A stretch of DNA of 37,136 nucleotides from Candidatus Woesearchaeota archaeon (GTDB taxonomy: Archaea; Nanobdellota; Nanobdellia; Pacearchaeales; GW2011-AR1), in the NCBI GenBank assembly GCA_964551115.1, contig CAZKBE010000003.1, positions 1 through 37,136 on the forward strand. The letters run 5' to 3'. Shown here in pieces: positions 7,638-26,055 of this stretch. Under the pieces are notes generated by a model. The model saw only the letters and a program-made list of their open reading frames with translations, searched no databases and was not told where the DNA came from. The translations under genes were made by a program, and so were the position numbers. Every line of letters starts with the position of its first letter. Within the stretch, counting starts at the first letter, position 1.

Positions 7638-8177
7638 TTATTCTTCGCCAACCTTTTTCATTAGAATAGAAAGAGTAGCAAGCTCACAAGATTCAAACAC
7701 AACCGAATCTTTTTTTACCTTTTTACATAATGAAACATAACTTGCAATAGTTTCACCATCCACCTGGCTAGAACTATAAATATTATAATAGTTACAATTT
7801 AAACCAGGACAAGTAATTTCCCCTGCGGAAAAGTTAGAATTAATTTTATAAACTTTTATAGATGCAACTGGCCAAAAAGAACCATAGAGCCTATTAAAAT
7901 CCTCTGAAGAAAGAACATAAAGCTTATCCTCATCGATACAACCACTGCTACTATCAGAACAGCTTAATTCAGGAAGTTCAGACCAAGAAAGTAAAGCACT
8001 AATAACTTGTTTTCGTTCTAATTCCTGGGCTGAATATCTCATATCACCCAAGCTTAATTGAAGAAAAAATAAACCAACTAATGTAAAAAAAACAAAGACA
8101 GCAACAAGCATAAAGGCCATTTGTTGGATCTCAAACTGTGCCCGTTTATAATTCAAACTATTAAAGATTAGGACCAT
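7638..8177 (-). CDS. pilin-like protein with class III signal peptide (179 aa)
   Basis: The N-terminus NYKRAQFEIQQMAFMLVAVFVFFTLVGLFFL has [KR]-A-Q followed by a hydrophobic helix. Its start overlaps the stop of the upstream gene (8168-8177). Confidence 0.6.
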   Translation of the reverse strand: MVLIFNSLNYKRAQFEIQQMAFMLVAVFVFFTLVGLFFLQLSLGDMRYSAQELERKQVISALLSWSELPELSCSDSSSGCIDEDKLYVLSSEDFNRLYGSFWPVASIKVYKINSNFSAGEITCPGLNCNYYNIYSSSQVDGETIASYVSLCKKVKKDSVVFESCELATLSILMKKVGEE

Positions 8178-9142
8178 AATCTACATGACCCCCTATCTTC
8201 TTTATCTTTTATATCTAATGAACCTTGATACATATCAGCCAAGTCAAATCCAGTGAGATCCAGACTTGCATCAAAACTTTCTCCCTTTAAAGCCTCAAGT
8301 TCTAAACCTAAATCAACATTACAATTTCTAGCACCCATAAAATCAATCTTTTTAGAATACATTTCAGCAAGAATATGTTGTCTGTATAATAACCTCTGAA
8401 CATTACATAAATAAGATTCTTCCTCAGAAAAGATTGCAGGATAAAGAAGGTTTCCAGCATAATCTAACGAATAAGTGTCTTTTTCAACAATGCCAGTTTC
8501 ATACTCACTCTGACAAGAAAAAGAATTACAACTAGGTAAGACATTAATATCACAACCGCTACCTCCTCCGCCAAAACAAACTTTAATAGAATCCTCCGTA
8601 CAATTTAAATCTCCAAATTTAGCTTTCTTACCAAGTACGCCTAACATACTTAAAATATCCGATTCATCATCAAGACCCGTAAAGCAATATTCTTGAGAAT
8701 CAATAATTATGGCATCTGCGATCTTAAAAGCAAAAGAGATAGGCACAGAAAAGATATAAAAGTTTTTAGCGGGCTTATCCGAAATAAAAAGATACTTATT
8801 ATTAACAGAAATAGGATTACCAAAGACTTCAAATTGGTCACTTGACCTTTCCTGAGTCATAGCTGATATTTCGCTATAGCCAAAACTTCCAGTAAAACAT
8901 TCATTAGAAATTAAAGTATCTTTTTTAAAATTCACCGTAGATAGCCTACCGGAGGCAAATCCTGCTTGCATAGAATCGGTTACAACAGCTAATGCCTTGG
9001 CAATTTCAGTGTTTTGTCTAGTAGAAGTACCCATACCATATTTAACTGCGCCAAAAATCGCAAGTAATAAAATTGCAGTCCCTGCAATTATTGCAAAAAG
9101 CCAAACAAAATTAAATTCCCCTTTTTTTTCTTTAAAGACCAT
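8168..9142 (-). CDS. pilin-like secreted protein with class III signal peptide (324 aa), Cys-rich C-terminal half
   Basis: N-terminus MVFKEKKGEFNFVWLFAIIAGTAILLLAIFG. A Cys cluster follows: CTEDSIKVCFGGGGSGCDINVLPSCNSFSC. Confidence 0.6.
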   Translation of the reverse strand: MVFKEKKGEFNFVWLFAIIAGTAILLLAIFGAVKYGMGTSTRQNTEIAKALAVVTDSMQAGFASGRLSTVNFKKDTLISNECFTGSFGYSEISAMTQERSSDQFEVFGNPISVNNKYLFISDKPAKNFYIFSVPISFAFKIADAIIIDSQEYCFTGLDDESDILSMLGVLGKKAKFGDLNCTEDSIKVCFGGGGSGCDINVLPSCNSFSCQSEYETGIVEKDTYSLDYAGNLLYPAIFSEEESYLCNVQRLLYRQHILAEMYSKKIDFMGARNCNVDLGLELEALKGESFDASLDLTGFDLADMYQGSLDIKDKEDRGSCRLWS

Positions 9143-9196
9143 ATAAATTATAAGTTTAAGGTATTTTTAAATGTTGTATTATTTGGAAAAATAAAA

Positions 9197-9697
9197 TTAT
9201 TCTATTAGGACCGAAGCATCATAGATCTTTTTGTTTAAAGTTAATTCCTCTTCTACATATATACAATAAGGATTATGGGTTTTAATAATCTCTGGAAGAT
9301 TAATCCTTTTTATTTGTTTAAAAGGCATGTTACAAGAATTTTCTCCTGGAAGTAAAAAGGTATTTGCCTCTTCATAAGAATAAACGCTTATTAGATCATA
9401 TTCTTGTGCATAACTACCTCTCTGGGCTTGAGAAAGATTCGCAAAACAAATCATTTCAATTGAACCTGGAAGAGATAGTTTTACTTTTTTATTTAAGGTA
9501 GACTGAGATACAAAGGTATTACTAACCTGCTCCTGAAGAGATTCATAAGACTTGCCAATTTGACTACACTCACTGTAATTCAAAAAGAAATTAATAGCGT
9601 AAATTGCGGAGAATATGAAAACAGCTATAAGTATAATTGAAAAAATTACTCCAAAAGACAAATTTATATCTCCTTTTTTATTAGTTAATTTTCTCAT
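9197..9697 (-). CDS. pilin-like protein with class III signal peptide (166 aa)
   Basis: N-terminus MRKLTNKKGDINLSFGVIFSIILIAVFIFSAIYA. AAGGAG (minus strand, 9703-9708) lies 5 nt upstream of the ATG. Confidence 0.6.
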   Translation of the reverse strand: MRKLTNKKGDINLSFGVIFSIILIAVFIFSAIYAINFFLNYSECSQIGKSYESLQEQVSNTFVSQSTLNKKVKLSLPGSIEMICFANLSQAQRGSYAQEYDLISVYSYEEANTFLLPGENSCNMPFKQIKRINLPEIIKTHNPYCIYVEEELTLNKKIYDASVLIE

Positions 9698-9930
9698 CTC
9701 TTCTCCTTAAAGTTTAATAGAATAAGAGTTTAAAAGCGTTTTGTCAATAAAGATTAACCCCTAAGGATTAAAGAAGAACTAAGGGGGTAGAAAAATTAAA
9801 GAATTGAGGCCTAACAAACGTAGAATATACCAATAAAAAATTTCTAAGATATAATTATTAAGAGTTTTCAATTTATAGATAAATTAATCTTAAACTCATA
9901 GATAATAACAAATGGTTTAATAAAAATAAA

Positions 9931-12150
9931 TTAAGGTACAGTGCGGAGAATAAAAGAAATATCTAAAATCGCGAACCGATTAAACAAAGAAACAATTAAC
10001 TGTAAAGTTAACTTCAACCTCCCATCAACATCGGTACTAAATAAATATTTTCCGATACGAACAGACTTTCCTTCTGCTAAGTTTTCGTCTATATAATATG
10101 CAGAACCTTCATCATGTAAAACCTCCTCATCCGCCACATTATATCCCTTTCTATTCAATTCACTCCTCAAGCTTTGTTTATTTAGGTCATCCAGACTATC
10201 CCACCAACTAGCCACAGCTTTTTGATAATCATCTCCCGCAGAATAATAAACTCCATGAACCACTTCATGATTCCATGTATCAACTCCAGTGCCTGCTAAT
10301 GAACCATCCCAAATAATTAACGGAACATTTGAAGCTTGCGGAGTAGTTTGATAATTCGGATGACTTCCAGTAAGATATCCTTGATTAACCAAATCACTTA
10401 CAAACGCCTGTTCATAAGCCGTTAAAGAAGACTTTTTATTTAATGCTGTAACAATACTTTTAGAAGCGAAAGAAGTTCCAGCTATCCTCCCGATAGCATC
10501 ATCCCTAGACTCCTCAGTAAACTCTCCGCTTTCAATTGCAAAATCAACCAACAAATTTTGTATCTCCTCCCCCTTGAAGTCTGAAACAACTATATCTGCA
10601 ATCTTTATCTGGCTATCCCCTTCAGAAAGAGTATTTAAAGACAATGACAAAGGAATAGCAGATCCAACCTCTCCACTGCCAGAAACCTCCGCCAGTCCAG
10701 ATTCTGAAGTCACCACTTCAGGAGTAATAGCGACTGCAACGTCATCATTTACCACCACACTTTGAAAATCTTCCTCAGGCGCAACAAATGTTGTAACAAG
10801 CTCATCAACAAGATAATCCCCCTCTAATTCACTAACCAACTTATCAAAATAATTTTGTTCCCAATCATACGTATCTATAACCTCATTTATTTGGGTATCT
10901 GTTAGGCTAGGATATAACTCCCTAATAAGTTCTGTATTTATTTGAAGAGTTGGACTAGCTTCTGAACGATTATCCAAATCTATAAGTATCTCTTCAAGTT
11001 TTGAAGTTTCCAAGGACAACCTATCGGGACCAACAAAAAGTCCATTTTTATTAGCCATAAATTTCATCTCGTCTGAATCCTGCAAAATCCAACTCAATTC
11101 CCCCTCATCATGAACATCTGCAAAAAAAGAATAAAGAGGGTTAACATCCTCAAAAAATACAGCACCATTTGAAATATCCGCAGCGAACATAGGAATAGAA
11201 CTTCCATCATCTAGACCAAAGAACACTTTTGGAAGGTTTTTATCAGTGGTATATTCATTATACAAGTCAAGCTGATCAAAAAGATCTAACTTCCCAGACA
11301 ATGTAACCACATTTTCAGTTTTATCCGAAACAAGATTATCTTGTAAAACAAAAACAGTGTCATCTGTATCCATACTTCTTCTACCAGTCATCAGAGTATT
11401 TTTAGCCGGATTCATAGTCATCTGCCCAACATTTAAAGTTCCAAATCTTTTCCCAGAGTAATCTATAGATACAGGTGTTGTTGCAGTAATCTTTAAAGCC
11501 CCATCATCTCCAACTCGATCTAATTTAAAATTCGTATCAGTATATGTATTCCCTAAATGATCTTTAACAACAGAATTATCTCCTTTTATCTCAAAATTTT
11601 TCAAAGAAGTGAAATCTGCTGGAGCAACATTACTTAAATCTGCCCTTGCAGGACTCGCATCTTCTCCAGTTAAAACAATCTTTCCTTCACCTGGAAAGGT
11701 TATATCTCCATTGGAATAGATAGCACCATTACTAAATTTCAACCCATCTGTTGTCAAGGTCACATTTATTTTATTCTGCTCACAGTAGTCTTGAACTTTA
11801 GAAGCATTAAACGACAAATCCCCCTTACCCTCTGGAAGTTTAGCAAGAATCAAGTCCCCTGGCAAAACTTCAAGTCCCAATTTAGAGCCAGTCAGCGAAG
11901 AATCCTTAGAATTCTCAAGCATCATTATCCCCTCTTTACTTAGCTCTATCCCAAAAGGCTTAAGACGATCCTCTTGTTTCTTAAAAGTATCTAATAAAGC
12001 AACAGAATCAGCAACCGGAGGATTTGCAACAGTAGCAGAACCATCTACCGCGACCTCAACAACAGGAACATTCGCACCTATTCCAATACCCATTCCGATT
12101 ACAAATAAACCTATTACCAAAAATCCTAAAAACAATCTTTGATTTATCAT
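9931..12150 (-). CDS. large secreted/anchored protein (739 aa) with C-terminal HEXXH motif; giant partner of cassette 3
   Basis: N-terminal hydrophobic signal/anchor MINQRLFLGFLVIGLFVIGMGIGIG. The start forms an ATGA overlap with the upstream adaptor gene. WNHEVVHGVYY lies near the C-terminus. The protein is acidic and poor in Cys, unlike the other giants. Confidence 0.7.
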   Translation of the reverse strand: MINQRLFLGFLVIGLFVIGMGIGIGANVPVVEVAVDGSATVANPPVADSVALLDTFKKQEDRLKPFGIELSKEGIMMLENSKDSSLTGSKLGLEVLPGDLILAKLPEGKGDLSFNASKVQDYCEQNKINVTLTTDGLKFSNGAIYSNGDITFPGEGKIVLTGEDASPARADLSNVAPADFTSLKNFEIKGDNSVVKDHLGNTYTDTNFKLDRVGDDGALKITATTPVSIDYSGKRFGTLNVGQMTMNPAKNTLMTGRRSMDTDDTVFVLQDNLVSDKTENVVTLSGKLDLFDQLDLYNEYTTDKNLPKVFFGLDDGSSIPMFAADISNGAVFFEDVNPLYSFFADVHDEGELSWILQDSDEMKFMANKNGLFVGPDRLSLETSKLEEILIDLDNRSEASPTLQINTELIRELYPSLTDTQINEVIDTYDWEQNYFDKLVSELEGDYLVDELVTTFVAPEEDFQSVVVNDDVAVAITPEVVTSESGLAEVSGSGEVGSAIPLSLSLNTLSEGDSQIKIADIVVSDFKGEEIQNLLVDFAIESGEFTEESRDDAIGRIAGTSFASKSIVTALNKKSSLTAYEQAFVSDLVNQGYLTGSHPNYQTTPQASNVPLIIWDGSLAGTGVDTWNHEVVHGVYYSAGDDYQKAVASWWDSLDDLNKQSLRSELNRKGYNVADEEVLHDEGSAYYIDENLAEGKSVRIGKYLFSTDVDGRLKLTLQLIVSLFNRFAILDISFILRTVP

Positions 12151-12923
12151 ACGTTATACCTCACTCCAAACACAAAGAAATAATCAAGATTTTTATGCTT
12201 TTCGATATTTAAATATTTAAATCTATAAATATAATTAGTTTTATCGCCCTCAGAGCTTAAAGGATTAATTTCAAATGAAAAACCATATTCCTTACCAAGC
12301 TCTTGCGTCTGAGTAAATGGAATCCACAAAGGTTCTTCTGCTTGCACCTCCAAAAAGTCCTTCAAAGCATTATATTTTGAAAGGTAATCAAAATTAACAT
12401 TTTTACTAAACCTCTTAAATTGAATACTTTCATCTTCACGGGAAACAGTTACAATTTGATTAAGCACAATTTCAACTATAGTTCCTTTAATATTCGATTT
12501 AACATCCAAATTATCTCCAAAAGAAAGTTCATAGTCTCTTGCCTCAAGATCATTTAGTAATAAACAAAAATTCAAATTATCTTCAATATATTTATTAAGT
12601 TCATCTTCTAAAACACTCATCTCTGGCAACTTCTTTCCATCATCAAAATAAATAGGCAATTCAAAGAATCCCCGTGTTAAAGTATCCTCACTAGAAACAT
12701 TATAATAACCCCCCTGTAGAGAATTAAAGTAAATTCCATCAAGAGTTACCTCTTCCAAACATTCTTCAACTAAAGAATTAACCTCTGGAAATTTCTTAGC
12801 TGCACTAGAAGAAGAATCAAAAACACCCGAAGAAATAGCAAAATATACTCCAATAGATCCAACAATAACTATCGCAAGAACTATAAATAAAGTCAACTGC
12901 GCCCTCTTATTATCCCTCTCCAT
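12147..12923 (-). CDS. class III signal peptide adaptor protein, cassette 3 (258 aa)
   Basis: N-terminus MERDNKRAQLTLFIVLAIVIVGSIG. The core ECLEEVTLDGIYFNSLQGGYY is shared with the 35449-37136 product. The ORF-track start at 12938 is TTG. ATG 12923 lies about 25 nt downstream of TTTATAAA (12945-12952). Confidence 0.7.
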   Translation of the reverse strand: MERDNKRAQLTLFIVLAIVIVGSIGVYFAISSGVFDSSSSAAKKFPEVNSLVEECLEEVTLDGIYFNSLQGGYYNVSSEDTLTRGFFELPIYFDDGKKLPEMSVLEDELNKYIEDNLNFCLLLNDLEARDYELSFGDNLDVKSNIKGTIVEIVLNQIVTVSREDESIQFKRFSKNVNFDYLSKYNALKDFLEVQAEEPLWIPFTQTQELGKEYGFSFEINPLSSEGDKTNYIYRFKYLNIEKHKNLDYFFVFGVRYNV

Positions 12924-13035
12924 GTAGTTTTCATGCAAGCAAGCTTTATAAATATTTATCTTCGCAAACCTTCTTATTCAATCTAAAAAAAATACCCAAA
13001 AATAAAAAAGATTCAAAACTAAGATTCTACAAAAA

Positions 13036-15204
13036 CTAATAATTCAAAAAGTTCTCTTTAGGCTGTATAACAACAGAACAATCTATTGGCTCATTTCTAA
13101 ATTCATCCCTACACTTAACATAGAAAATTTTATCATTCTCCCACGCAACAATGTGTGTAGAAGATTTAGCATAGGGCATTAAAATCCCTTCTTCAAATAA
13201 GAAATCACAACTATCTGCAGAGTAAACACAATCAGAATCTCTAACCGTAACAAGTTTTAGATAATCATCTTCATAATAGGCTCGAGTTACAATAGGGGAA
13301 GCAGTATCAATATCTAAAGTAAAGGTAGTGTTACTAATTGCAACATTTCCTCCCGCATCTACACATTTTACAAAATAAGTATGTGTTCCAGCAAATAAAT
13401 CTAATCTTTGTATATGTATTCCTGAAGTCTGATCTGTATCAAAGAAAGCAACATAGCTACTTTCAAGCCCACTAGATGAATAAAAGCAAACAGCCCGATT
13501 ATCATCACAACCAAACAAAGTTTCTGCCCTTAAGTCCACCCTCATTGGGGAAACACCACCATAAATTGTGCCATTTGGTAGAACAGTCTTTAATTTCAGA
13601 GGATTAGAACCCTTTAACCTAAAAACTACTGGCTGCGCCATTGAATTTCGCAGATTTTTAGGTTCATTTTGTCTATCTTCGCATTTTACATAATAATCTG
13701 TTCCTTCTCTTTTAACACCGGTTAACTCGGTATTACATGTATATAACATCATAGAATTCACCTGATAAACTTGTGTAGTACAAGACATATTATATGGAAG
13801 AGAGTCATAAGCTTGATTCTCAAAGCCCCATTTACACTGAGCAGGCTCATCAGTATAGAAACTTACTTGTGTAGAATTTCTATCTGCAGCAACACAACTT
13901 TCTGTTTCTATAGAAGTTGCTTTTATTTGAGGAGCAGTTGCATCCGGAGCCGAATCAACACAAAATCTTACAGCATAAGGTGCTTGATTTAAATTTCCCC
14001 AAGAATCCCTACATCTTAAATAAAGAGTCATTTCATTACCCATTTCAAGATTTATAGAAGAATTTTTTATATCTTTTGCTTTAGGTAAAGTCAAAAATTC
14101 AGAGTGATTATATTTGTAAATATTATCTCCACCCATAAAGGTAGCCATAGAATCAAAACTATCCTTGTATTCTACATCAATCTTGCACTGCGCAGGTTTA
14201 TCTGTAATAACACCAAATTCTATAGGGGTAAAAGCAGGTATACAGCTATCTACACTATCTGTTTTTTTGATTTTAAATCCTGGTCCAGGAGGCGAAAGCT
14301 TTACATCGGTATATGCATAACCGGCAGTTAATTTATCATCCCACGGTTTTATAACGGGAGGATTTACTTCACGAGTACCTTTGTAAACACACATTTCAAA
14401 AGCAGTTCCCTTATTTTCAATCTCGCATCCCTGTCCTAAAGATTTACATCTGTATTCAGAACATGGCACAGGACCTTTGTTACATAAATCACAATCTTCT
14501 CCACCACGAGGTGCCTGCCAAGACATACATTGAAATGAAACAGATTCTAATTTAACTGTTTCTTTTTCATATTGAGAGGTATAAAGATACCAGGCAATTG
14601 CAACACCAACTCCTGTTGCTACACCTTTTGATCCCCACCAGTTTCCAGGAGTTGCCTTACTACCTTTCCAAAACCCTCCGTCAATACCCTGTAATACTCC
14701 ATAAGTTAATTTTCCGGCCAAAATTCCTCCAGCTACTGAAACAGTAGCAGCATTAACATCGATATTATCCTTACCACCAATATTGGCAAGTTGACCAACA
14801 AGAGAAACAAATGCTGCAGCCCCAACTGCCCAAACAAATCCTTCAGCAAGATGCCCTACAAGTGGGCCAACATCTGTTTTAAAGAAAAGAGGATAATTTG
14901 AACTATTGGCAGATGTGCCAGTAGCAGATGTGCCAGTAGCAGATGTGCCAGTAGCAGATGTGCCAGTAGCAAGCGGTACAATATCTAGAACAGTACCAGG
15001 TACTGGCAAGGTTGCTGCAGCGGGACTCGATGGAAGAGGCTCTATAACAACCGCTTGTAATCTTTCAATCGCCTCTTCAGTCAAAGCTAAGCTGACCTCA
15101 TCATCTTGAGCACTACTTCCAATGCCCACCATAAACGCAAAACTAACCATTCCTAAAATCATTAAAAATACTTGCGAAACAGCTAAACCCCTTTTATTAA
15201 TCAT
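13036..15204 (-). CDS. membrane-embedded Cys-rich surface protein (722 aa); C-terminal module of split giant, cassette 2
   Basis: Order of elements: signal peptide, (TGTSA)4 linker, Gly/Ala-rich hydrophobic block (aa ~112-210), the motif FQCMSWQAPRGGEDCDLCNKGPVPCSEYRCKSLGQGC, then four repeats ending Y-x-[KR]-C-x-D. It is collinear with the C-terminal half of the 18427-22817 gene. Confidence 0.8.
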   Translation of the reverse strand: MINKRGLAVSQVFLMILGMVSFAFMVGIGSSAQDDEVSLALTEEAIERLQAVVIEPLPSSPAAATLPVPGTVLDIVPLATGTSATGTSATGTSATGTSANSSNYPLFFKTDVGPLVGHLAEGFVWAVGAAAFVSLVGQLANIGGKDNIDVNAATVSVAGGILAGKLTYGVLQGIDGGFWKGSKATPGNWWGSKGVATGVGVAIAWYLYTSQYEKETVKLESVSFQCMSWQAPRGGEDCDLCNKGPVPCSEYRCKSLGQGCEIENKGTAFEMCVYKGTREVNPPVIKPWDDKLTAGYAYTDVKLSPPGPGFKIKKTDSVDSCIPAFTPIEFGVITDKPAQCKIDVEYKDSFDSMATFMGGDNIYKYNHSEFLTLPKAKDIKNSSINLEMGNEMTLYLRCRDSWGNLNQAPYAVRFCVDSAPDATAPQIKATSIETESCVAADRNSTQVSFYTDEPAQCKWGFENQAYDSLPYNMSCTTQVYQVNSMMLYTCNTELTGVKREGTDYYVKCEDRQNEPKNLRNSMAQPVVFRLKGSNPLKLKTVLPNGTIYGGVSPMRVDLRAETLFGCDDNRAVCFYSSSGLESSYVAFFDTDQTSGIHIQRLDLFAGTHTYFVKCVDAGGNVAISNTTFTLDIDTASPIVTRAYYEDDYLKLVTVRDSDCVYSADSCDFLFEEGILMPYAKSSTHIVAWENDKIFYVKCRDEFRNEPIDCSVVIQPKENFLNY
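14909..14970 (-). repeat. 15-bp tandem repeat, about 4.1 copies, encoding (TGTSA)4
   Basis: gcagatgtgccagta is repeated exactly at 14909, 14924, 14939 and 14954. It is in frame within the 722-aa ORF. Confidence 0.9.
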
Positions 15205-15611
15205 TCTCTACTCCAAAATTTTAATTTATCCCAAAAGGATTTTTTACCATCTAATACAGGTTTAGAAATTTCCGCAATAACATTTCCACTAATAGCCACA
15301 CCTACACCACTCTCACCTAAAGATAAACCAAGAGAATTGCTTCCGCTAGAAACAATAGGAGCAGGTAATTCTTCTCCCGCAATCTTGCCCCATAAAACAT
15401 TCATAAGAGATTCAGATCTTTCATAAACAAAATTCTCCTGAATTTTTCCTTGACCCTCAATTTTCTCAATAACTATTTCTCCACCTTCAGAATCAATAAT
15501 AGTATCTCCAATTCTTAAATCAGAAACCCTTCTTAATTGGTATTCCGCAGCAAAAGCAGAAGAAACTAAAAACATACCTAGCAATAAACAAACAAATAAT
15601 TTTAGTTTCAT
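15201..15611 (-). CDS. small secreted protein (136 aa) between the two halves of the split giant
   Basis: Sec-type signal MKLKLFVCLLLGMFLVSSAFAAE. ATGA overlaps at both ends (15608-15611 and 15201-15204). Confidence 0.65.
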   Translation of the reverse strand: MKLKLFVCLLLGMFLVSSAFAAEYQLRRVSDLRIGDTIIDSEGGEIVIEKIEGQGKIQENFVYERSESLMNVLWGKIAGEELPAPIVSSGSNSLGLSLGESGVGVAISGNVIAEISKPVLDGKKSFWDKLKFWSRE

Positions 15612-17623
15612 ATCTTCACAAGGACATAACTGTCCTCCTTTAATTTAATTTCATTATTTATTACAAAATCACTAGAAGAATCAGAAGCAATAACATTTCC
15701 CGCACCAAGTGTGGATAAACCTTTTCTAACATTTCCAAGTAAACTAAATGTATCATTTTTATATTTCCACATATAACCATCATCCGTATATCTATCATTT
15801 ATATTTATATTCGCTCCACAATCGCCAATAGAAGTACAAATGGCATTTACTTTCATTGCCCAATCCTTTTTAGGAACTAAACTATATGATTTACTACTAG
15901 ATTTAGGTTTTTCTGCCCACTCAAGACACTCACTACTAACACTTACTTTCCCAGAAGAATTAATCATCTTATGGTCGTAAGATTTTTTAGCTAAAAGATC
16001 CATCTCCTCTGTTATAATAATCTTAACCTCGCAATTTGCAGAAGCCATAGCACAACTACCCTGATTTTCCCAAAACTTGCTTCCCGGAGGAATCATTGGA
16101 ACACAAAGTCCTCCTTCTTCTGATTCAGTCTTATTAAATTTAGAAACTTTATTTAAAATATCATAATCTATTTCCCACTGGCCTTTACCTGATCCAACTA
16201 AACTAGAAATAGCAGCACCTGCAACCATAGTACCTGAAGTAGGATTAGTATTTAGAGAATTAACTAAAGGAGCAGCAGTATTCATTAATTGCACAGTCTG
16301 ATCAGTTTGAGAAGGCGAACTAGATGGGTTACTAAATCCTATATTAGCATTAGGATTAGATAAACTACTTTGTTGTCCCCCTGTTTGAAAATTTAAACCA
16401 TCTACATTTTCTGTCCAAATACAATCTCTTTGATCAATATTTTCACAATCCCTTTTTCTGGTCTGAGCAGAACAATCCTGATATCGATTAACTCTACAAG
16501 CGGCTGTTGAAAACTCCCCTTCAGTAGTTGAAATTCCTGAATGAATACAAATCTGATTTCTAAAATCTCCACAAGGATCTGTAAGAACTTCCCCATCAAC
16601 ACAAATCTGCCTAAAATGTCTAGAACCAACTTCTTCAAAACCCTTGCCAGGTTCAATATCATAAACGCACCAACTTTCCCCATTTAATCTAGCCTTTCCA
16701 TCCATATCGGTACAACTTGTTTTTTTACAAATATAATCTCCAAATTTAGGAGCTCCAAAAAGACCTGACTTTTCAGCACATCGAGAACCAAGTAAATAAT
16801 CGCAATTTCCACAATCTCTGGAGTCTCCTGTTCTTGCACAAATTTCATCAGGTGATGTAACTCTTCCCTCATTCCAAGAAGCATCTTTATCAGAACTATA
16901 TACATTTTCGCGATTACCTTTATCGTCAAACCAATAAACTTTACCCTGATAACAATCAGTCTTAGCCTGTCTAGCGCTATCTGTGTTTAACTCTTCTGCA
17001 GAACAAAGCATATCTTTAAAGAATTTTTTACCTAACTCTTGTTCAAAAATAGAAGTGTTTACATTCAAAGCAATAATTCCATCTTCAGCACCACACTCAC
17101 CTCGCGTAGAAAATTTACAAGTATTTACTCCGCTAGCAGTATAGGTTACACAAGCTCCTTTATCCGCGCTATTAGCTAAAGCAATACATTGGCTTTCAGA
17201 AGTAACTGATGGACGATAATCCATCTCAATTCCAAAACTAGTTGATAATCTTTTACATCTAACAAGCGGAACAAAAGCCGCTTGATCGGAAATTATACAA
17301 CATCCAAGATTACATTGTGAAAGTTCAGATGCTTTTTTCTCACTCCAAGAACCCCCACTTTCAGTACAAACCTTCTGAGGAACACTTTCCATACAAATTC
17401 CTTCATCAGAATCATAACAAGTCCCAAGTTTACAAAAACTTGTAGACTCACACGAAGTCGAAGCAACCTTAAAGGCTGGATCACATTGATTTTCTTCAAG
17501 ATTCAAACAAACTCCTCCACTTATAGATTGCTCACAGCAAACAGAAGGAGTAGAAATAATCGCAGAAGACAAACCAATTAATAAAAATAGTCCAAAAGTT
17601 AAAAATAAAAAATTAAATCTCAT
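15608..17623 (-). CDS. secreted Cys-rich protein (671 aa from ATG 17623); N-terminal module of split giant, cassette 2
   Basis: Signal peptide MRFNFLFLTFGLFLLIGLSSA. About 39 Cys by my count. Blocks shared with the cassette-1 giant include CNLGCC, CGNCDYLLGSRC and GESWCVYDIEPGKGFEEVGSRHFRQIC. The ORF-track start at 17647 is TTG. ATG 17623 has GGAGGT 8 nt upstream and forms TAATG with the adaptor stop. Confidence 0.8.
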   Translation of the reverse strand: MRFNFLFLTFGLFLLIGLSSAIISTPSVCCEQSISGGVCLNLEENQCDPAFKVASTSCESTSFCKLGTCYDSDEGICMESVPQKVCTESGGSWSEKKASELSQCNLGCCIISDQAAFVPLVRCKRLSTSFGIEMDYRPSVTSESQCIALANSADKGACVTYTASGVNTCKFSTRGECGAEDGIIALNVNTSIFEQELGKKFFKDMLCSAEELNTDSARQAKTDCYQGKVYWFDDKGNRENVYSSDKDASWNEGRVTSPDEICARTGDSRDCGNCDYLLGSRCAEKSGLFGAPKFGDYICKKTSCTDMDGKARLNGESWCVYDIEPGKGFEEVGSRHFRQICVDGEVLTDPCGDFRNQICIHSGISTTEGEFSTAACRVNRYQDCSAQTRKRDCENIDQRDCIWTENVDGLNFQTGGQQSSLSNPNANIGFSNPSSSPSQTDQTVQLMNTAAPLVNSLNTNPTSGTMVAGAAISSLVGSGKGQWEIDYDILNKVSKFNKTESEEGGLCVPMIPPGSKFWENQGSCAMASANCEVKIIITEEMDLLAKKSYDHKMINSSGKVSVSSECLEWAEKPKSSSKSYSLVPKKDWAMKVNAICTSIGDCGANININDRYTDDGYMWKYKNDTFSLLGNVRKGLSTLGAGNVIASDSSSDFVINNEIKLKEDSYVLVKI

Positions 17624-18381
17624 TAGATATAACCTCCTGCCGGCCAAGGAAAGCTCTTGACAGAAAACTGATAGACAATATCTTCATTCTTTTCAGTTAA
17701 TGTATAAACCTTAATTTCTCCATCAATTCTTTGTTTATCTATAATAATATTAGGATAATAAAACATCTGAGTAGTCTGTTCACTATCTCCATAATATGTC
17801 TCAAATTGTATCAAGGAAGTTGCAACCATCAATAACTCATATAAATTAGTTTTATAAGTATATTTATACTTCTGTGTAAGAGTTGTTCCTAAACCGCTAG
17901 AAGCAGTTAAAGGTGCATCAAGTTTTATAACAACCCCCATAGGTTCAATAGAAATATCAAATTTAGCCGTACCTTTAGATACCTCATACCCTCTTCTAAC
18001 TAAATCACTTACAGCAGAGTCATAACACGCTTGAAACTCAGATTTCAAAATATTTGCCAAAGAATCCTCAAAAACATTTGTTAAAATAGGCGCTTGGTTC
18101 ACACAAGGAGTATAATAATCGTCAGTATAACACAAGAAGGTATAATTATTTCCCCCATACATGTGATTAAATTTAGGTCTTATAACTCCGGCAGTTAAAG
18201 CCAATTTTTTTATCTCAACATCTAATGATTTAGAAATACAACTTTCAAGAACAGGTACACCAGAATCTGAAGAAAAACCCCCAAGATTATAAAAATAAAA
18301 TAAAACACCAATAGCAACCACTAAAAGTATCGCTAGAACTATAAACAAAGTCAACTGCCCCCTTTTATCTTTCTTCACCAT
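17623..18381 (-). CDS. class III signal peptide adaptor protein, cassette 2 (252 aa)
   Basis: N-terminus MVKKDKRGQLTLFIVLAILLVVAIG. FLCYTDDYYTPCVNQAPIL is shared with the cassette-1 adaptor (FLCYSTEFYSPCIPQNPLL). Confidence 0.75.
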   Translation of the reverse strand: MVKKDKRGQLTLFIVLAILLVVAIGVLFYFYNLGGFSSDSGVPVLESCISKSLDVEIKKLALTAGVIRPKFNHMYGGNNYTFLCYTDDYYTPCVNQAPILTNVFEDSLANILKSEFQACYDSAVSDLVRRGYEVSKGTAKFDISIEPMGVVIKLDAPLTASSGLGTTLTQKYKYTYKTNLYELLMVATSLIQFETYYGDSEQTTQMFYYPNIIIDKQRIDGEIKVYTLTEKNEDIVYQFSVKSFPWPAGGYI

Positions 18382-18398
18382 GTTTTTAATACATTTTT

Positions 18399-18414
18399 AG
18401 TATTTATAAATACT
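18399..18414. promoter_or_regulatory. 16-bp palindromic TATA element agtatttataaatact upstream of cassette 2
   Basis: Perfect palindrome about 25-30 nt upstream of ATG 18381, in the 45-nt gap after the cassette-1 genes. Confidence 0.45.
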
Positions 18415-18426
18415 ATTATTCCCTCA

Positions 18427-19158
18427 TTAAAGTCTCTTTATTGGTTTAATTATTGTTGAACATGATAGAGGAGTATTAAATTTCTTATCTCGGCATTTGA
18501 TAAAGTAAATTTCTAAGGGTTTAGAGTCAAAGCTATGTTCTTTTGCAAGATACTTTGGAATTGTAGAATTAAATTCAAACCCGCAACCAATGGTTTGGTT
18601 TGTCTCATACATACACTCTGCTTCTTCGTCAGTAACAAGCCGTATAGTACCGTCTAGATTCATAGCTCTCAAAACTTGCGGAACAACATCATCAAAATAA
18701 ACAGTAAAATTAAATGTTTTATTTGCTGTATTTTTTGCTTCATCTTCACATAAAACTTCAATTTCATGTTCTCCTTGTGGAAGCGTTAACAATTGAGAAT
18801 GAACTTTTCCGCCAGTTTGAAGAAAATCATTATACATATCACTATAATTTTTCATCCTAAAACTACAAACTGCATCACCTAAACAACCTGAAGTTGAAAC
18901 AGATAAAGTAAAATTCTTTTCCTCAATAAAAGTATTAGAGTTTAGTAAAGAAATATCAAGACCATTAGAACAAACATTTATTTTATAATTTGTACTTATA
19001 AAATTAGCATTTCTAGGGTAATTTTCAGTCTCTTCTAAACCTACTTGATCCTTACATCTAAAATAAAGATTATTTTGTCCAATAGTTAAATTTCCTAAAG
19101 TAGCAAAACAACTCCATTCTCCAAAGTATGCCGAGTTCTCATCAGTTATACAAAACAT
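18427..19158 (-). CDS. C-terminal fragment (243 aa) of the cassette-1 giant protein, separated by a tandem duplication
   Basis: Its first 102 aa (MFCITDENS...CSFRM) are identical to the last in-frame residues of the 19167-22817 ORF. The remaining 141 aa align with the C-terminus of the 722-aa paralog (YFIKCRDKKFN versus FYVKCRDEFRN). It has no signal peptide of its own. Confidence 0.7.
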   Translation of the reverse strand: MFCITDENSAYFGEWSCFATLGNLTIGQNNLYFRCKDQVGLEETENYPRNANFISTNYKINVCSNGLDISLLNSNTFIEEKNFTLSVSTSGCLGDAVCSFRMKNYSDMYNDFLQTGGKVHSQLLTLPQGEHEIEVLCEDEAKNTANKTFNFTVYFDDVVPQVLRAMNLDGTIRLVTDEEAECMYETNQTIGCGFEFNSTIPKYLAKEHSFDSKPLEIYFIKCRDKKFNTPLSCSTIIKPIKRL

Positions 19159-19516
19159 TTGATGCCTTAATTCATCATATCCATCCTAAAACTACAAACT
19201 GCATCACCTAAACAACCTGAAGTTGAAACAGATAAAGTAAAATTCTTTTCCTCAATAAAAGTATTAGAGTTTAGTAAAGAAATATCAAGACCATTAGAAC
19301 AAACATTTATTTTATAATTTGTACTTATAAAATTAGCATTTCTAGGGTAATTTTCAGTCTCTTCTAAACCTACTTGATCCTTACATCTAAAATAAAGATT
19401 ATTTTGTCCAATAGTTAAATTTCCTAAAGTAGCAAAACAACTCCATTCTCCAAAGTATGCCGAGTTCTCATCAGTTATACAAAACATTTGATGCCTTAAT
19501 TCATCATATCCATCCT
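18853..19516. repeat. perfect 329-bp tandem direct duplication with 6-bp junction homology (catcct)
   Basis: 18853-19181 and 19182-19510 were compared base by base and are identical. catcct recurs at 18853, 19182 and 19511. Confidence 0.95.
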
Positions 19517-22500
19517 TACCCGAAGGAACATCATACTCATAATCAAATCTACACTCGGCCGGCTCATTTAAATATAAAATTAAATCAGAAGAATTTGATC
19601 CTTGTTTTAAATAAGAGTTAGTTTCTGGAGAAAATCTTCTTATTTCTGGCGGAGTCAAATCAGGTCCATCTTTTGTTTTTATTTGAACCACAAATTCAGC
19701 TTCATTTATCTGTCCAGCAAAATTCATACATCTGATATAATATTCATTTTCTTCTCCTTGAACGAGTCCTAGAGTTGAAGCCGAGCCGGCTGAAAAAGCA
19801 TTTAACTCCGCTTGATGATGTGTCCCTTCAGCTTTTCCAGTATCAGGATTAATAGAAGAAAACATTTCATATTTCATCTGAGAATAATCAGAAGTGTGTT
19901 CTGAATCTATTCTACAACTTGCAGGTTTATCTGTAATAATTCCAAAAGTCAAAGAAGTCCAAGCCGCAACTCCTTGACCAAGAGAACCTTCAATTCTAAA
20001 TCCATTATCCCTTACGGAAGAATATTCATTTCCTGGGCTAATAACTTCTTGCCAAGGCTTAATTTGTGCAGACCATATTTCATTTACAGAAGCACAATAA
20101 CCCGGTTCTCCATTCTCAATAAAATATTGACATCTTTGACCAAGAGACTTACATCTATATTCTGAACAAGGTCTAACATCGTTATTACATAAATCACAAT
20201 CTCCGATCTTTGGAGGCTGCCATGCTTCACAATTAAATTGCATAATGAAGTATTCTTGTTCATCATAGGAATTAAAGAATGCTTCATAAATTATATAGAT
20301 GATTGCAACGATTAATCCAACAGCCCCGAGTGAGGCCATAGAAAAAAAACTAGAACTGAATAGTGTTCCAAAGCTCGCACCTAAGGAAGTAGTTCCAAGA
20401 GTACTAGCTGCAACATTTACACCAACGGCATAACCAATAGCTCCCCCAACAGCTCCCATTAATTGCACAAAAGCCTGGGATTCTCCAGGACTCCAATCTT
20501 GATTTTTTGCAATTAAACCTCCTATTTGTCCGCCAAGGTAAGAACCAGCAATCGAAAAACCAACAGTAATGCCTGCAGATTTTAAACCTTGCAAGACATT
20601 AGATCCCATTGAAGTAGTTGGAGTTGGAGTTGGAGTTGAAGGACCATAAATAGGAGTAGTCGCCGGACCCGTTCCACCAAAATTATGTTGTATCCCTATT
20701 ACCTGTACACCGCCCACTCCCAAACTATTTACACCAGAAGAAAGAGAACCTACACTACTTGCTGCACTAAACCATCCCATACTCGCACCAAGGGTTAAAC
20801 CACCTAAAGTTAACGGACCAGCAAGGCCCATAAAATCATTGTATGATTCACCACCGGAATAGACATTCGCACCTCCAGCCATATCTTTTAAATCAACAAC
20901 ACCGCCTGAAACTTCCCCCATTGTTCCGGCAGTATCTGCATCACTAGCCATTAAATTCCCTGAAGAAGACTTGATCTGATCAAGTTTAGCCAAAACAGGT
21001 GTTACGCTTTTAATAGAATTTATATATGTAGAAGAAAGGACATAAGCAGAAGAATTATAGTCTTCATGAGTTTTTCCTTTACTATCAATCTTAACTCTTT
21101 CAACAGAAAAACCCGGGTAATCTTCATTTACAAAACCCTGAAGATTAGTTGAAACACCACAGCTTCCAAGGGATCTACAACGTTCATTCATCGCAGCAAG
21201 CAAAGCAGGTAAATCCTTTCCTTCTATTGCAGAATGAACGCCATTAATATTACATTCCCAATTAAGACGATTATCTTCCCAAGAATCACAACCACCTAAA
21301 AGAGTACACTCTCGATTTATCTGACTAACACAAGTAAAACTCCCTAAACTACAAACAGCATTTGTTTCTTCATTACTTCCCCCATAATTCGCAGAAGACT
21401 TCTGTTGTTTACCAGAACCGACGATAGAACCAGTTGTTGTCCAAAATTGAAATCCGGGGGTAAATTTTGGAACACAGTGAGCTAAGACCTTATTCTGATC
21501 TTTTCCTAAATCACCAATTGATCCCTGTTCGGCATTTGTTTTTTCAGGATCAAAACCTGCTAAGAATTCATTATCGCTTCTTTTCAAATTATCTTCCCCA
21601 TATAGATCATTAAACATAATACACTGAGGATTTTCATCACAGTTTTTCTTAACTTCTGAATAAGATTCTGCATCATTTGCATTAATACAGCTCCGCCAAT
21701 CATTAACTAAACATTTTGCTTCAGTAAAACCAAAAGAAGTATCAGTACTCTGTGCACAGATTTCTTGACCAAAATCAGCACAACCTTCAAGAGAAACTTG
21801 CCCTTCAAAACAATTTGCTAAAAAATGTCTAGAACCAACAGGCGCAACACCTGCTAAAGGATTAAAATCATAAACACACCAGCTTTCTCCATGCTTTCTT
21901 TCCCCACAATGTAAACTCTTACAAGTATAATCTCCATAAGTAGGTTTTGTTGTAACTCCTTGTTCATGTTCAACACAAATGCTTCCTTGTAAATATTCAC
22001 AATTCCCGCAACTAGCGTCTTCATTAGCACAAGAATCTTTTGGATCAATTGGTCTTTCCCAATAACTCTGATCGTTAATTTTAGAAGAATCATAAACATT
22101 GGCAACATTTCCACAACTATCTAAAAAATAAACTTGGTCTTTACCATCCACACAAGTTGTTTCTCTAGACTTCTGACAAACAGTATTAAGTTCAGTAGAA
22201 GTACACAAATAATTTTCTTTAAAATCTCCGCCCTGACAATTTTTCCTAGTTGTAAAAACACATTTTTTCTCCCCAGAGTAATCTCCTGAATCGCTTAAAC
22301 ATGCTCCTTGTTCTTCAAGACCTGTATATTTCTCGCAACTTTCGCCAGGAGAGATTGAAATAAAATTCTTCTCAAAATTAAATTGATTTGAAAGCAAAGT
22401 ACATTCACGAGAATTTGTCAATGAAACCTGATCACCCATAACACAACAACCAAGCTGACATTGAGGGATATTACAAGAAGCATCACTTGACCAATTTCCC

Positions 22501-22817
22501 CCATTAGAAATACACTTATCCTTGGGAGCTCGCATAGAACAAGAACCAGTATCAACGCCATAACAACAACCAAGTTGACATTGATCAACCACATTACATC
22601 CGGTTCCAATTAAAGAATCTTTACATAGATCAGACTGAAATAGAGGGATATCCTGGCAAATTGCTCCTTCTTTAGTCTCTAAACAACAACCCTTTGGACC
22701 TTCATCCTGAGCAGAAACTAAAGGAGTGGAATCCGGAGAAATTAAATAAGCAAAAGAAAAAGTTGCAAATAACATAATACTTAATTCAAATAACCCAATT
22801 AACTTCTTAGTTCTCAT
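19167..22817 (-). CDS. giant secreted Cys-rich membrane-embedded surface protein, cassette 1 (N-terminal 1216 aa, truncated by a frameshift at the duplication)
   Basis: Signal peptide MRTKKLIGLFELSIMLFATFSFAYL. Triple CQLGCC-type Cys knots. PSTPTPTPTT linker, then a Gly-rich hydrophobic block. FNCEAWQPPKIGDCDLCNNDVRPCSEYRCKSLGQRC follows. GGGGTG lies 5 nt upstream of ATG 22817; the ORF-track start at 22844 is TTG. The ORF ends ...CSFRM-DMMN* at the duplication junction. Confidence 0.8.
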   Translation of the reverse strand: MRTKKLIGLFELSIMLFATFSFAYLISPDSTPLVSAQDEGPKGCCLETKEGAICQDIPLFQSDLCKDSLIGTGCNVVDQCQLGCCYGVDTGSCSMRAPKDKCISNGGNWSSDASCNIPQCQLGCCVMGDQVSLTNSRECTLLSNQFNFEKNFISISPGESCEKYTGLEEQGACLSDSGDYSGEKKCVFTTRKNCQGGDFKENYLCTSTELNTVCQKSRETTCVDGKDQVYFLDSCGNVANVYDSSKINDQSYWERPIDPKDSCANEDASCGNCEYLQGSICVEHEQGVTTKPTYGDYTCKSLHCGERKHGESWCVYDFNPLAGVAPVGSRHFLANCFEGQVSLEGCADFGQEICAQSTDTSFGFTEAKCLVNDWRSCINANDAESYSEVKKNCDENPQCIMFNDLYGEDNLKRSDNEFLAGFDPEKTNAEQGSIGDLGKDQNKVLAHCVPKFTPGFQFWTTTGSIVGSGKQQKSSANYGGSNEETNAVCSLGSFTCVSQINRECTLLGGCDSWEDNRLNWECNINGVHSAIEGKDLPALLAAMNERCRSLGSCGVSTNLQGFVNEDYPGFSVERVKIDSKGKTHEDYNSSAYVLSSTYINSIKSVTPVLAKLDQIKSSSGNLMASDADTAGTMGEVSGGVVDLKDMAGGANVYSGGESYNDFMGLAGPLTLGGLTLGASMGWFSAASSVGSLSSGVNSLGVGGVQVIGIQHNFGGTGPATTPIYGPSTPTPTPTTSMGSNVLQGLKSAGITVGFSIAGSYLGGQIGGLIAKNQDWSPGESQAFVQLMGAVGGAIGYAVGVNVAASTLGTTSLGASFGTLFSSSFFSMASLGAVGLIVAIIYIIYEAFFNSYDEQEYFIMQFNCEAWQPPKIGDCDLCNNDVRPCSEYRCKSLGQRCQYFIENGEPGYCASVNEIWSAQIKPWQEVISPGNEYSSVRDNGFRIEGSLGQGVAAWTSLTFGIITDKPASCRIDSEHTSDYSQMKYEMFSSINPDTGKAEGTHHQAELNAFSAGSASTLGLVQGEENEYYIRCMNFAGQINEAEFVVQIKTKDGPDLTPPEIRRFSPETNSYLKQGSNSSDLILYLNEPAECRFDYEYDVPSGKDGYDELRHQMFCITDENSAYFGEWSCFATLGNLTIGQNNLYFRCKDQVGLEETENYPRNANFISTNYKINVCSNGLDISLLNSNTFIEEKNFTLSVSTSGCLGDAVCSFRMDMMN

Positions 22818-22819
22818 AA

Positions 22820-23593
22820 TTACACCCCTGCCGGCAAAACGCAAGTTCGTATTGCAAATTTAATTTCATTATCAAAACCCCTCAAACCAACACTATAAAC
22901 CTTTGTTTGGTCTCCTCCCCGATTACGTGTAATCACAAGATCCCTATTTATCGCCTGCCAAGTCATATGATTAAACTCACAAAAGACAGACTCGTAATTA
23001 ACAATAGTTTCAGCAGTTCTAAGTAATTTAGGTAAACTACTAGGATAATTACCCGATCGTGTTGAAATTAATATAGATTCATCTCCGCGATCCATTCTTA
23101 TAGAAGTCTTAGCATCATAAGAAATATCTAATTCATTAAAGGTTAAAGACAGTGTAAAACTAGAATATTCAAAAGAATAACCCTTATTTTCATAATCTTC
23201 CTTAAGGGTTAAAATACATCTGGATAATTCACGAGAAACATAATTTTCCATATTTTTTCTTACAGACTCGATTAATAAAGGATTTTGAGGAATACAAGGA
23301 GAATAAAATTCAGTAGAATAACATAAAAAAGGCATGGATTGTAAATTATACTTATATAATAGTGAACTGCCTCCAAGGGATGAAAAAGACTTAAAAAATT
23401 CCTCTTCAGAATCGGCTATCGCTTTTTCAATACAAGTAGAAATATATTCTGCAGGAGAAGAAGTCTTTTGTCTAAAGGGATTTAATTCATTTTTAGACAT
23501 AGTAAAAAAGAATATAATAGCTACAACAAGTATTATGCCCAAAATCACAAATAAAGTTAATTGGGCTTTCCTTGAAAAGATCACAACATCCAT
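22820..23593 (-). CDS. class III signal peptide adaptor protein, cassette 1 (257 aa)
   Basis: N-terminus MDVVIFSRKAQLTLFVILGIILVVAIIFF. Core shared with the cassette-2 adaptor. The stop lies 2 nt before the giant gene's ATG. Confidence 0.75.
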   Translation of the reverse strand: MDVVIFSRKAQLTLFVILGIILVVAIIFFFTMSKNELNPFRQKTSSPAEYISTCIEKAIADSEEEFFKSFSSLGGSSLLYKYNLQSMPFLCYSTEFYSPCIPQNPLLIESVRKNMENYVSRELSRCILTLKEDYENKGYSFEYSSFTLSLTFNELDISYDAKTSIRMDRGDESILISTRSGNYPSSLPKLLRTAETIVNYESVFCEFNHMTWQAINRDLVITRNRGGDQTKVYSVGLRGFDNEIKFAIRTCVLPAGV

Positions 23594-23763
23594 AAAGTTA
23601 ACCCCTCTTTTTTAATTCTCTTTAATTTACCCTCAAGAAGAAGTTCCATTAAATACTTTTCTGCAGTATTCCAGCTTAAGTCAAATTCCCGTGCCACTTC
23701 TGAGCTAGTAACTACTACTGTTTTCTTAACAAATTCCAAGAGCTCTTTATTTTCAACCTTCAT
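23581..23763 (-). CDS. small winged-helix DNA-binding protein (60 aa), putative regulator at the head of the surface-protein operon
   Basis: ELLEFVKKTVVVTSSEVAREFDLSWNTAEKYLMELLLEGKLKRIKK has the helix-turn-helix plus wing pattern of MarR/TrmB/ArsR-type wHTH proteins. It overlaps the next gene's start by 13 nt. Confidence 0.55.
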   Translation of the reverse strand: MKVENKELLEFVKKTVVVTSSEVAREFDLSWNTAEKYLMELLLEGKLKRIKKEGLTLWML

Positions 23764-24419: not shown

Positions 24420-24494
<75 letters not shown>

Positions 24495-26053: not shown

Positions 26054-26055
26054 TT

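Follow-up and report, generated by a model that had tools for sequence, protein, structure and literature searches.

A conserved operon of prepilin-like adaptors and giant secreted proteins in Pacearchaeota and Woesearchaeota as a candidate surface-display system

Introduction

The 37,136-nt stretch of DNA analysed here (hereafter the window; contig CAZKBE010000003.1 of the Candidatus Woesearchaeota archaeon assembly GCA_964551115.1) carries an operon in which small proteins with a class III, i.e., prepilin-like, signal are encoded directly in front of giant secreted proteins. We refer to the small proteins as adaptors (A1 to A4), to their partners as giants (G1 to G4) and to three further pilin-like proteins as P1 to P3; the core order on the minus strand is [wHTH]-A1-G1-A2-G2a-G2c-P1-P2-P3, with wHTH denoting a small winged-helix gene. 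In our favoured reading, which we judge to have about an even chance of being right, the operon serves surface display throughout the Pacearchaeota and Woesearchaeota lineage (DPANN archaea) and is built from parts resembling those of type IV filaments (TFF), whose adaptors would tether interchangeable giant adhesins or effectors for cell-cell contact. The evidence comes from sequence motifs, the coupling of the genes and its conservation, the paralogue-specific pairing of adaptors and giants, and the domain content.

Among uncultured archaea, Pacearchaeota and Woesearchaeota rank with the most abundant. Their genomes are minimal, and an attached life on other cells is assumed for them; we know of no attachment machinery in either group. 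Pacearchaeota were found to be enriched in the host-attached size fraction (He et al. preprint). The operon described here is conserved in the lineage and occupies a sizeable part of a very small genome, and all of its families are uncharacterised. Its pilin-type signals and the link of G4 to published giant murein hydrolases make its products concrete candidates for a host-contact apparatus.

Results

Adaptors and giants form a conserved operon

A first-pass annotation of the window, made from the letters alone, had described one block at 7638-23763 and a second at 30158-37136 as repeats of a two-gene cassette. All of its open reading frames (ORFs) and N-termini were recovered on the minus strand, and the two blocks indeed make up 62% of the window. 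The simple two-gene repeat, however, is better replaced by a conserved operon of eight or nine genes plus the accessory cassettes A3-G3 and A4-G4. The wHTH gene (23581..23763, 60 aa; this and all further features lie on the minus strand unless stated otherwise) opens the operon as proposed and matches the FaeA-like Pfam family PF04703 with 24.8 bits at a cutoff of 20.7. Its stop codon and the start of A1 overlap by 13 nt, and homologues lie directly upstream of A1 in L005 (55% identity; L001, L002 etc. label related loci used for comparison) and in 14 survey loci.

A search with the adaptor profile yielded 7214 cluster representatives at E ≤ 1e-3; 3118 of them pass a threshold of 1e-10 and 501 one of 1e-30, and nearly all of the best 150 matches listed are 245-285 aa long. 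Scanning one genome per GTDB species, we found at least 275 adaptor loci, and nearly all of the 80 listed are labelled Pacearchaeota, Woesearchaeota, Nanoarchaeota or just “archaeon.” Across 78 of these listed loci, with 125 adaptor ORFs, the next gene almost always encodes a protein of 5-9% Cys that is homologous to G1 or G2a. The adjacency of adaptor and giant, first noticed within the window, is conserved in other species (84 of 103 scorable pairs overlap or lie ≤5 nt apart) and is paralogue-specific. In a neighbour-joining tree of the adaptors, one clade holds all 57 adaptors with a G2a-type partner and only 4 of the 41 with a full-length partner; clade and partner type agree in 94 of 98 cases, which indicates an ancient split between A1 and A2 that goes along with the type of partner.

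More than 30 loci, from at least 30 species of Pacearchaeota and Woesearchaeota, show the complete order [wHTH]-A1-G1-A2-G2a-G2c-P1-P2-P3. Beyond the operon, L002 and L003 carry His_Phos_1, UPF0020 and Response_reg genes as the window does, and cassette 3 (A3-G3) is absent from both. In other genomes, extra adaptors at the position of cassette 3 are followed by mutually unrelated, Cys-poor proteins (L061, L067, L073). At L004, a distant relative, a ParE/MazE toxin-antitoxin pair (8467-8978) sits between two adaptor-giant cassettes with similar adaptor N-termini.

The tight junctions reported for the window were confirmed in detail. A1 (22820..23593, 257 aa) ends in GGGGTG-TAA-tt-ATG at 22828-22815, leaving a gap of 2 nt before G1; A2 (17623..18381, 252 aa) runs into G2a by GGAGGT...TAATG at 17637-17621; and A3 (12147..12923, 258 aa) overlaps G3 by ATGA at 12150-12147. 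The same ATGA overlap, at 35452-35449, joins G4 to A4 (35449..37136), a long adaptor paralogue whose 5′ end of about 47 codons lies beyond the window. The TATA-like boxes ascribed to A2 (tttataaata, 18410-18401) and A3 (atttataaag, ~12953-12944) are likewise present 20-30 nt upstream of the respective ATG. The Shine-Dalgarno (SD) motifs of G1 and G2a (GGGGTG at 22823-22828 and GGAGGT at 17632-17637) and that of G4 (GGGGTG at ~35459-35464) lie inside the final adaptor codons, those of G1 and G2a on the conserved C-terminal P-A-G(-G) codons of A1 and A2. An SD-like motif in these PAGG codons occurs in 14 of 103 pairs from other species compared to a background of 5% and is a local rather than a general feature.

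Despite their low identity, the adaptors are true paralogues, as had been suspected from a shared core: BLASTP links A1 to A2 (5e-24), A2 to A3 (4e-7) and A3 to A4 (2e-4), and A4 matches the adaptor hidden Markov model at 5e-13. Orthologues of A1 in L001 and L002 share 51-53% identity with it. Orthologues of A4 are 609-616 aa long, start with MV..KKGQVTIFI (N-termini MVEIRRKKGQVTIFII or MVISKKGQVTIFIV), overlap the start of the G4 orthologue by 4-8 nt and lie beside the genes for TFB and ribosomal protein S8e, as in the window. The AlphaFold2 (AF2) model of A2 (mean predicted local distance difference test score, pLDDT, 83.6) consists of an N-terminal helix (residues 6-33), a disordered linker (33-41) and an alpha/beta globular part, with no coiled coil.

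Searches of Pfam, NCBIfam and PHROGs gave no significant match for any A, G or P protein, and PDB sequence and profile searches returned nothing for G1, G3, G4, the adaptor profile or the G1 profile. The initial statement that neither partner belongs to a characterised family stands in terms of Pfam, NCBIfam, PHROG and PDB matches for adaptors, giants and P proteins.

N-terminal signals of adaptors, P proteins and giants

The class III-like cleavage motif first read in the window proved near-invariant across species. Among 106 adaptors (those of other species plus A1 to A3), 102 show [KR][GA]↓Q, the arrow marking the putative cut, with Q at +1 in 101 and F at +5 in 96. A1 (SRKA↓QLTLF), A2 (DKRG↓QLTLF), A3 (NKRA↓QLTLF) and A4 follow the pattern K/R-G/A↓Q-L-T-L-F, continued by a hydrophobic helix. 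The complete class III architecture, i.e., a basic N-region, a [KR]-[GA] site and about 20 hydrophobic residues, is present in the adaptors, the P1-P3 orthologues and G2c, and in part in the G1 family.

As claimed, three further proteins with class III signals close the block: P1 (9197..9697, 166 aa, NKKG↓D...), P2 (8168..9142, 324 aa, KKG↓EFNFVWLFAI, with neither E nor Q at +5) and P3 (7638..8177, 179 aa, KRA↓QFEIQQMAFM). Their orthologues keep [KR][GA]↓[QED], and those of P3 have Q at +5 in 11 of 12 cases. Convergent to P3, a 101-aa two-helix membrane protein is encoded at 7325-7630 on the plus strand; homologues occupy the same position after P3 in L002, L003, L007, L009, L010 and L015, and it could be an unrecognised component of the system.

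The giants had been assigned Sec-type signal peptides. This is correct for G2a, G3 and G4, in which, as in G2b, an ordinary Sec-like signal peptide is found and a strong membrane anchor is missing; G1 and G2c instead have pilin-like N-termini with E or Q at +5. Among 100 N-termini of the G1/G2c type, E (59) or Q (38) stands exactly nine residues before F-A-F-[SA]-[YF], and 97 show KK-x5-[EQ]; the E/Q is placed five or six residues past the K/R pair. Bacterial pilins follow the pattern G↓FTLIE with Glu5, and by analogy the G1/G2c N-terminus resembles this Glu5 arrangement.

The giants of the core operon

G1 is split in the window. Its 5′ part (19167..22817, 1216 aa, 5% Cys) has the pilin-like N-terminus KK-x5-E...FSFAY...VSA and further includes a Cys-rich domain, helices rich in Gly and the first Ig-like domains, and its 3′ part (18427..19158) is a 243-aa ORF of C-terminal Ig-like domains, with BLASTP matches to the end of G1, the C-terminus of G2c and the C-termini of orthologues and a weak Pfam match to Big_13. 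The interruption is a perfect tandem duplication of 2 x 329 nt at 18853..19510 (18853-19181 = 19182-19510) with AGGATG microhomology at the junction. As 329 is not a multiple of 3, the frame is shifted and G1 ends in DMMN*; removal of one copy restores a G1 of 1353 aa, colinear with intact orthologues of 1334 and 1360 aa. All G1 orthologues examined are intact, and the duplication may have arisen very recently as an inactivating or switch-like mutation, or it may be an artefact of the assembly.

The structural model of G1 (residues 18-1216, pLDDT 79.7) is confident in two places: the N-terminal domain, rich in beta structure and in Cys (~23-600), and a series of beta-sandwiches towards the C-terminus (~820-1160). 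Three Gly-rich or hydrophobic helices lie in between. Foldseek searches of PDB and BFVD with this model returned tandem Ig-like domains in the C-terminal half and a glycine-zipper hairpin (probability 1.00); the Cys-rich domain had no structural match in either database. Nearly all cysteines of the G1 family are invariant among 84 homologues. Hydrophobicity scans of the family show three to four moderately hydrophobic segments in the mid-region, often four; four would put both large domains outside the cell, the count being ambiguous. The density of N-glycosylation sequons is weakly enriched in the C-terminal halves of G1 and G2c.

The partner of A2 had been taken for a single giant and instead consists of three overlapping genes which together are equivalent to G1. 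G2a (15608..17623, 671 aa, 5.8% Cys) has a Sec-type signal peptide and a Cys-rich domain and corresponds to the N-terminal half of G1 (BLASTP 4e-54), while G2c (13036..15204, 722 aa) corresponds to the C-terminal half (3e-45) and combines the N-terminus NKRG↓LAVSQ...FAF with a Thr/Ser linker, Gly-rich helices, the motif CDLCN..PCSEYRC and Ig-like domains. T-tracts are found downstream of G2c. The small gene G2b (15201..15611, 136 aa) has a signal peptide of its own, and in L001 and L002 its segment forms the C-terminal ~85 residues of G2a. This gene fission, i.e., a separate gene of 129-136 aa, recurs in L005 (21525-21914), L008 (10709-11095) and L009 (6993-7379), and the N-termini read in the window and in L005 point to a newly acquired signal peptide.

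The accessory cassette of A3 encodes G3 (9931..12150, 739 aa) as its cargo, a protein with one Cys and a signal peptide of the Sec type; no relatives were found in the GTDB representative genomes. A single HEVVH motif near its C-terminus (residues 628-632) could mark a zincin-like metallopeptidase; profiles gave no support for this.

G4 and the large murein transglycosylase family

For G4 (30158..35452, 1764 aa), again with a Sec-type signal peptide, 145 homologues were found in the lineage; among the best 120 listed, E-values run from 0 to 1e-227, and several homologues bear an SLT-domain annotation. The homologue P0338 is 36% identical over 91% of the length of G4, and a gene of L085 is 35% identical (BLASTP, 1802 alignment columns). 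A subset of longer relatives carries C-terminal SLT, Amidase_3, Polysacc_deac_2, Amidase_2, Peptidase_M15_4 or Peptidase_M10 domains. Neither Pfam nor NCBIfam finds a hydrolase domain in G4 of the window, and in the relatives such domains are confined to the C-terminal extensions of longer members. A scan of the GTDB representative genomes found no close relatives.

G4 and its homologues belong to a family already published for Pacearchaeota and Woesearchaeota under the name “large murein-like lytic transglycosylase” (fam00969; PMC8204110; PMC9723730). Such large murein-transglycosylase proteins were described as specific to these two groups (PMC8204110, 2021) and have served as an argument for predation (Vigneron et al. 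2022, PMC9723730). The published family and G4 share the homology of a ~1700-aa scaffold, the lineage restriction and the synteny beside TFB and S8e; they differ in that G4 of the window has no recognisable hydrolase domain. In the literature on this family we found no mention of the upstream class-III-signal partner A4 or of its link to A1-A3. L085 is located on a Pacearchaeota scaffold of ~0.9 Mb (879,300 bp according to ENA; within the protein cluster, lengths reach 964,825 bp). At this locus, another giant gene of more than 4444 aa (20165-26951) lies 3 kb downstream of the A4-G4 pair.

Genomic context

The window encodes TFB, an LSM protein, ribosomal protein S8e and RNase Z and is archaeal, with a G+C content of about 32%. 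The closest relatives of its proteins are found in Candidatus Pacearchaeota metagenome-assembled genomes, and remoter ones are labelled Woesearchaeota or Nanoarchaeota. Just upstream of the operon with its Cys-rich G1, G2a and G2c lie genes for tRNA-Cys and tRNA-Arg (23940-24010 and 24419-24495, both on the minus strand), and a tRNA-Leu gene (30040-30124, plus strand) abuts the 3′ end of G4. No integrase or repeat hinting at mobility was seen near the tRNA genes. Between the tRNA genes and RNase Z, a 166-aa ORF (24539-25039) has no Pfam match.

Discussion

The blocks had been put forward as an undescribed system, and this seems to hold for the adaptor family, the pairing rule, the operon and the pilin-like N-termini of G1 and G2c. 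It does not hold for G4: we found no description of the adaptor family or the operon in the literature, and only the G4 family appears there, as a lineage-specific hypothetical family with an SLT domain.

Signal cleavage, assembly of a filament or complex, binding between adaptor and giant and the nature of the target cells are what we infer. The adaptors of ~255 aa would be made with a class III signal and probably cut at [KR][GA]↓Q, their N-terminal helix either staying in the membrane or joining a short pilus-like stem. Adaptor and cognate giant are probably translated from one mRNA, and the globular domain of the adaptor could then hold the giant at the cell surface. In the core operon, A1-G1, A2-G2a-G2c and P1-P3 might form one multi-subunit complex exposing disulfide-rich and Ig-like domains; G1 and G2c would contribute a pilin-like helix of their own, and P1-P3 would complete a set of seven such helices. 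By analogy to the tip complexes of type II secretion systems (T2SS) and type IV pili, subunits without Glu5, i.e., the adaptors and P2, could be located at the tip or start the assembly, followed by the subunits with E or Q at +5. The accessory pairs A3-G3 and A4-G4 would then present other cargo on the same type of tether, including, among the relatives of G4, cargo with peptidoglycan hydrolases. Such a system would likely serve to contact host or prey cells, probably bacterial ones, and perhaps to attack them.

Several observations favour such a display function. G2a, G3 and G4 have a cleavable signal peptide and no strong anchor, and would therefore need a tether to stay on the cell. Moreover, the adaptor is a modular element, since members of one family precede unrelated cargo, namely proteins of the G1/G2 type, G3, G4 and the proteins at L061, L067 and L073. 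The domains, too, suggest an outward-facing role: the Cys pattern of the G1 family is invariant, its C-terminal half consists of tandem Ig-like domains, and G4 relatives carry SLT, Amidase_2, Amidase_3 and M15 domains. A role at the surface or in cell-cell contact gains indirect support from the Ig-like domains of G1, the hydrolases of G4 relatives and the reportedly strong attachment of Pacearchaeota to hosts (He et al. preprint).

Other results weigh against this reading. In the A2 model, the disordered linker breaks the helix from the globular part, unlike the continuous alpha-1 helix of pilins. Neither Pilin_N nor Class_IIIsignal nor any other pilin family of Pfam gave a match even at E ≤ 1, and Foldseek found no pilin fold and no credible match for the A2 model in the PDB (best E = 0.017, TM-score 0.13). 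The putative -1 residue of the G1/G2c N-termini is G, A or S in 48% of cases; G1 of the window has Leu at this position (KKL↓IGLFE), and many members of its family show a VSA-type signal peptidase I site further on. For these reasons, G1 may be cut by signal peptidase I or not be cut at all. The three to four extra hydrophobic, Gly-rich helices of G1 are hard to square with extraction into a filament.

The assembly machinery points in the same direction. The window encodes no pilus ATPase, platform protein or A24 peptidase, as already noted in the first-pass annotation, and none is present in the annotated flanks of seven related loci. A regular-expression scan for the T2SSE Walker A motif across 1.2 Mb from 86 related loci (8-10 kb flanks) returned only NTPases of the signal recognition particle and AAA_18 types. 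Type IV pilus components have been stated to be missing from DPANN genomes (He et al. preprint), whereas TFF systems 1, 4A and Aap-like were reported to be present in some DPANN and Nanoarchaeota (2026 preprint). Given the extra helices of G1 and a machinery that is unlinked or absent, a filament may or may not form, and the complex may simply stay membrane-anchored.

A bolder version of the display reading, which we consider rather unlikely, is a new archaeal contact organelle. It would have a short TFF-like stem and Glu5-less adaptor pilins priming the tip, each with an interchangeable giant; disulfide-rich G1/G2 would bind the host and possibly insert into a membrane via the glycine-zipper helices, and G4-type cargo would deliver peptidoglycan hydrolases. 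If true, this organelle would be the molecular basis for the attachment of Pacearchaeota and Woesearchaeota to bacterial hosts and for breaching them, and a modular display of effectors at a pilus tip that has no characterised counterpart.

A structural explanation, in our view an unlikely one, would make the products a surface layer (S-layer)-like envelope lattice, with the giants as canopy of the wall and adaptors and P proteins as membrane stalks. The near-universal, syntenic occurrence of the operon in the lineage would fit, as would a giant beta-sandwich-rich protein beside a small membrane-anchored partner and one BFVD match to an SbsA Ig-like domain protein. For S-layer proteins, however, an invariant Cys content of 5-9% and an identity of 27-30% across orders are unusual, and a low-copy machine would be the more natural reading of seven pilin-like subunits and two conserved paralogous sets. 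The pairing of adaptors with variable and unrelated cargo, hydrolase carriers included, speaks against a lattice as well; contact or attack accounts better than a purely structural wall for accessory cargo that varies and for hydrolases on the relatives of G4.

We also give little credence to the idea that the adaptors are assembly or export helpers, e.g., membrane-anchored chaperones or foldases whose N-terminus is an uncleaved signal anchor, and not tethers. A plain signal anchor would not keep G/A at -1, Q at +1 and F at +5 in ~95% of sequences across orders, and three more proteins of the operon share the cleavage-site motif. The tight one-to-one translational coupling, on the other hand, is typical of chaperone and client; the flexible linker between helix and compact globular domain in the absence of a pilin fold would suit a helper, as would a TFF machinery that is unlinked to the operon and reportedly lacking in DPANN. 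A function specific to disulfide folding is contradicted by the cargo, since Cys-rich and Cys-free proteins are both served.

Very unlikely, in our estimate, is a membrane-active pore or fusogen, in which the glycine-zipper helices of G1 and G2c would enter the partner membrane as a conduit, with adaptors and P proteins as the base. The idea draws on the Gly/Ala-rich amphipathic helices between two large ectodomains, on the structural glycine-zipper match mentioned above and on the biology of DPANN, which need host contact; pore-forming toxins have been reported in Woesearchaeota (PMC9723730). The three to four hydrophobic segments fit an ordinary polytopic anchor in the own membrane equally well, however, and the PDB and BFVD Foldseek matches of the G1 model include no HAP2/fusexin, no class I, II or III fusogen fold and no known pore former. 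A mobile element or provirus with envelope or receptor-binding proteins is the only rival that can in effect be set aside: tRNA genes flank both blocks, some BFVD matches are to tail-fibre-like Ig domains and cassette 3 is variable, but the chromosomal synteny across species, with His_Phos_1, UPF0020 and Response_reg on one side, PCNA and DAC on the other and TFB and S8e by A4-G4, effectively excludes it, and there is no PHROG match and no integrase, capsid or replication gene.

Comparison with known systems

The two-component S-layer of Sulfolobales consists of SlaA and SlaB. Like the pairs described here, it combines a giant protein of many beta-sandwiches with a small membrane-anchored partner encoded beside it. 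In SlaB, however, the anchor is a C-terminal transmembrane segment with a coiled coil, whereas the adaptors have an N-terminal, pilin-like anchor and no coiled coil. The Cys-rich N-terminal domain, the multiple paralogous cassettes and the variable cargo also set our operon apart, and neither the top Foldseek matches nor the PDB profile search included SlaA or SlaB.

In Streptococcus sanguinis, PilB and PilC are modular pilins that bear bulky functional modules. The fusion of a pilin-type N-terminus to a large adhesive module recalls G1 and G2c, although G1 exceeds them about tenfold in size, contains additional hydrophobic, Gly-rich helices, shows no homology and belongs to another domain of life.

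Proteins with class III signals other than filament subunits are known from the bindosome (Bas). There, too, large non-filament proteins are displayed at the surface via a class III signal and a hydrophobic helix, and a trio of small pilin-like proteins is comparable to P1-P3. Unlike in the bindosome, no giant or neighbouring gene has a Pfam domain of substrate-binding proteins or ATP-binding cassette transporters, and BasEF-like genes are not nearby. Moreover, G2a, G3 and G4 with their Sec signals would be held indirectly, through a separate adaptor.

Tip complexes of minor pilins or pseudopilins with a large non-pilin adhesin are exemplified by bacterial type IVa pili (T4aP; FimU-PilVWX-PilY1) and T2SS (GspHIJK). 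They resemble the system described here in that one operon encodes several pilin-like proteins of graded size along with very large surface proteins; the adhesion role that we propose would be shared as well. As in GspK-type tip subunits, Glu5 is missing from the adaptors (F at +5) and P2, while G1/G2c and P3 have E or Q at +5. There are differences, too: neither sequence nor fold links the proteins described here to pilins or to the PilY1 propeller, the latter being absent from the Foldseek matches of the G1 model, which are Ig-like sandwiches instead, and from the Pfam results. ATPase, platform and peptidase are here unlinked to the operon and maybe absent from the genomes. Adaptors and giants are coupled one to one, and the giants themselves can carry a pilin-like N-terminus. 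We file the operon as a variant of the TFF-related display systems that stands outside any defined family.

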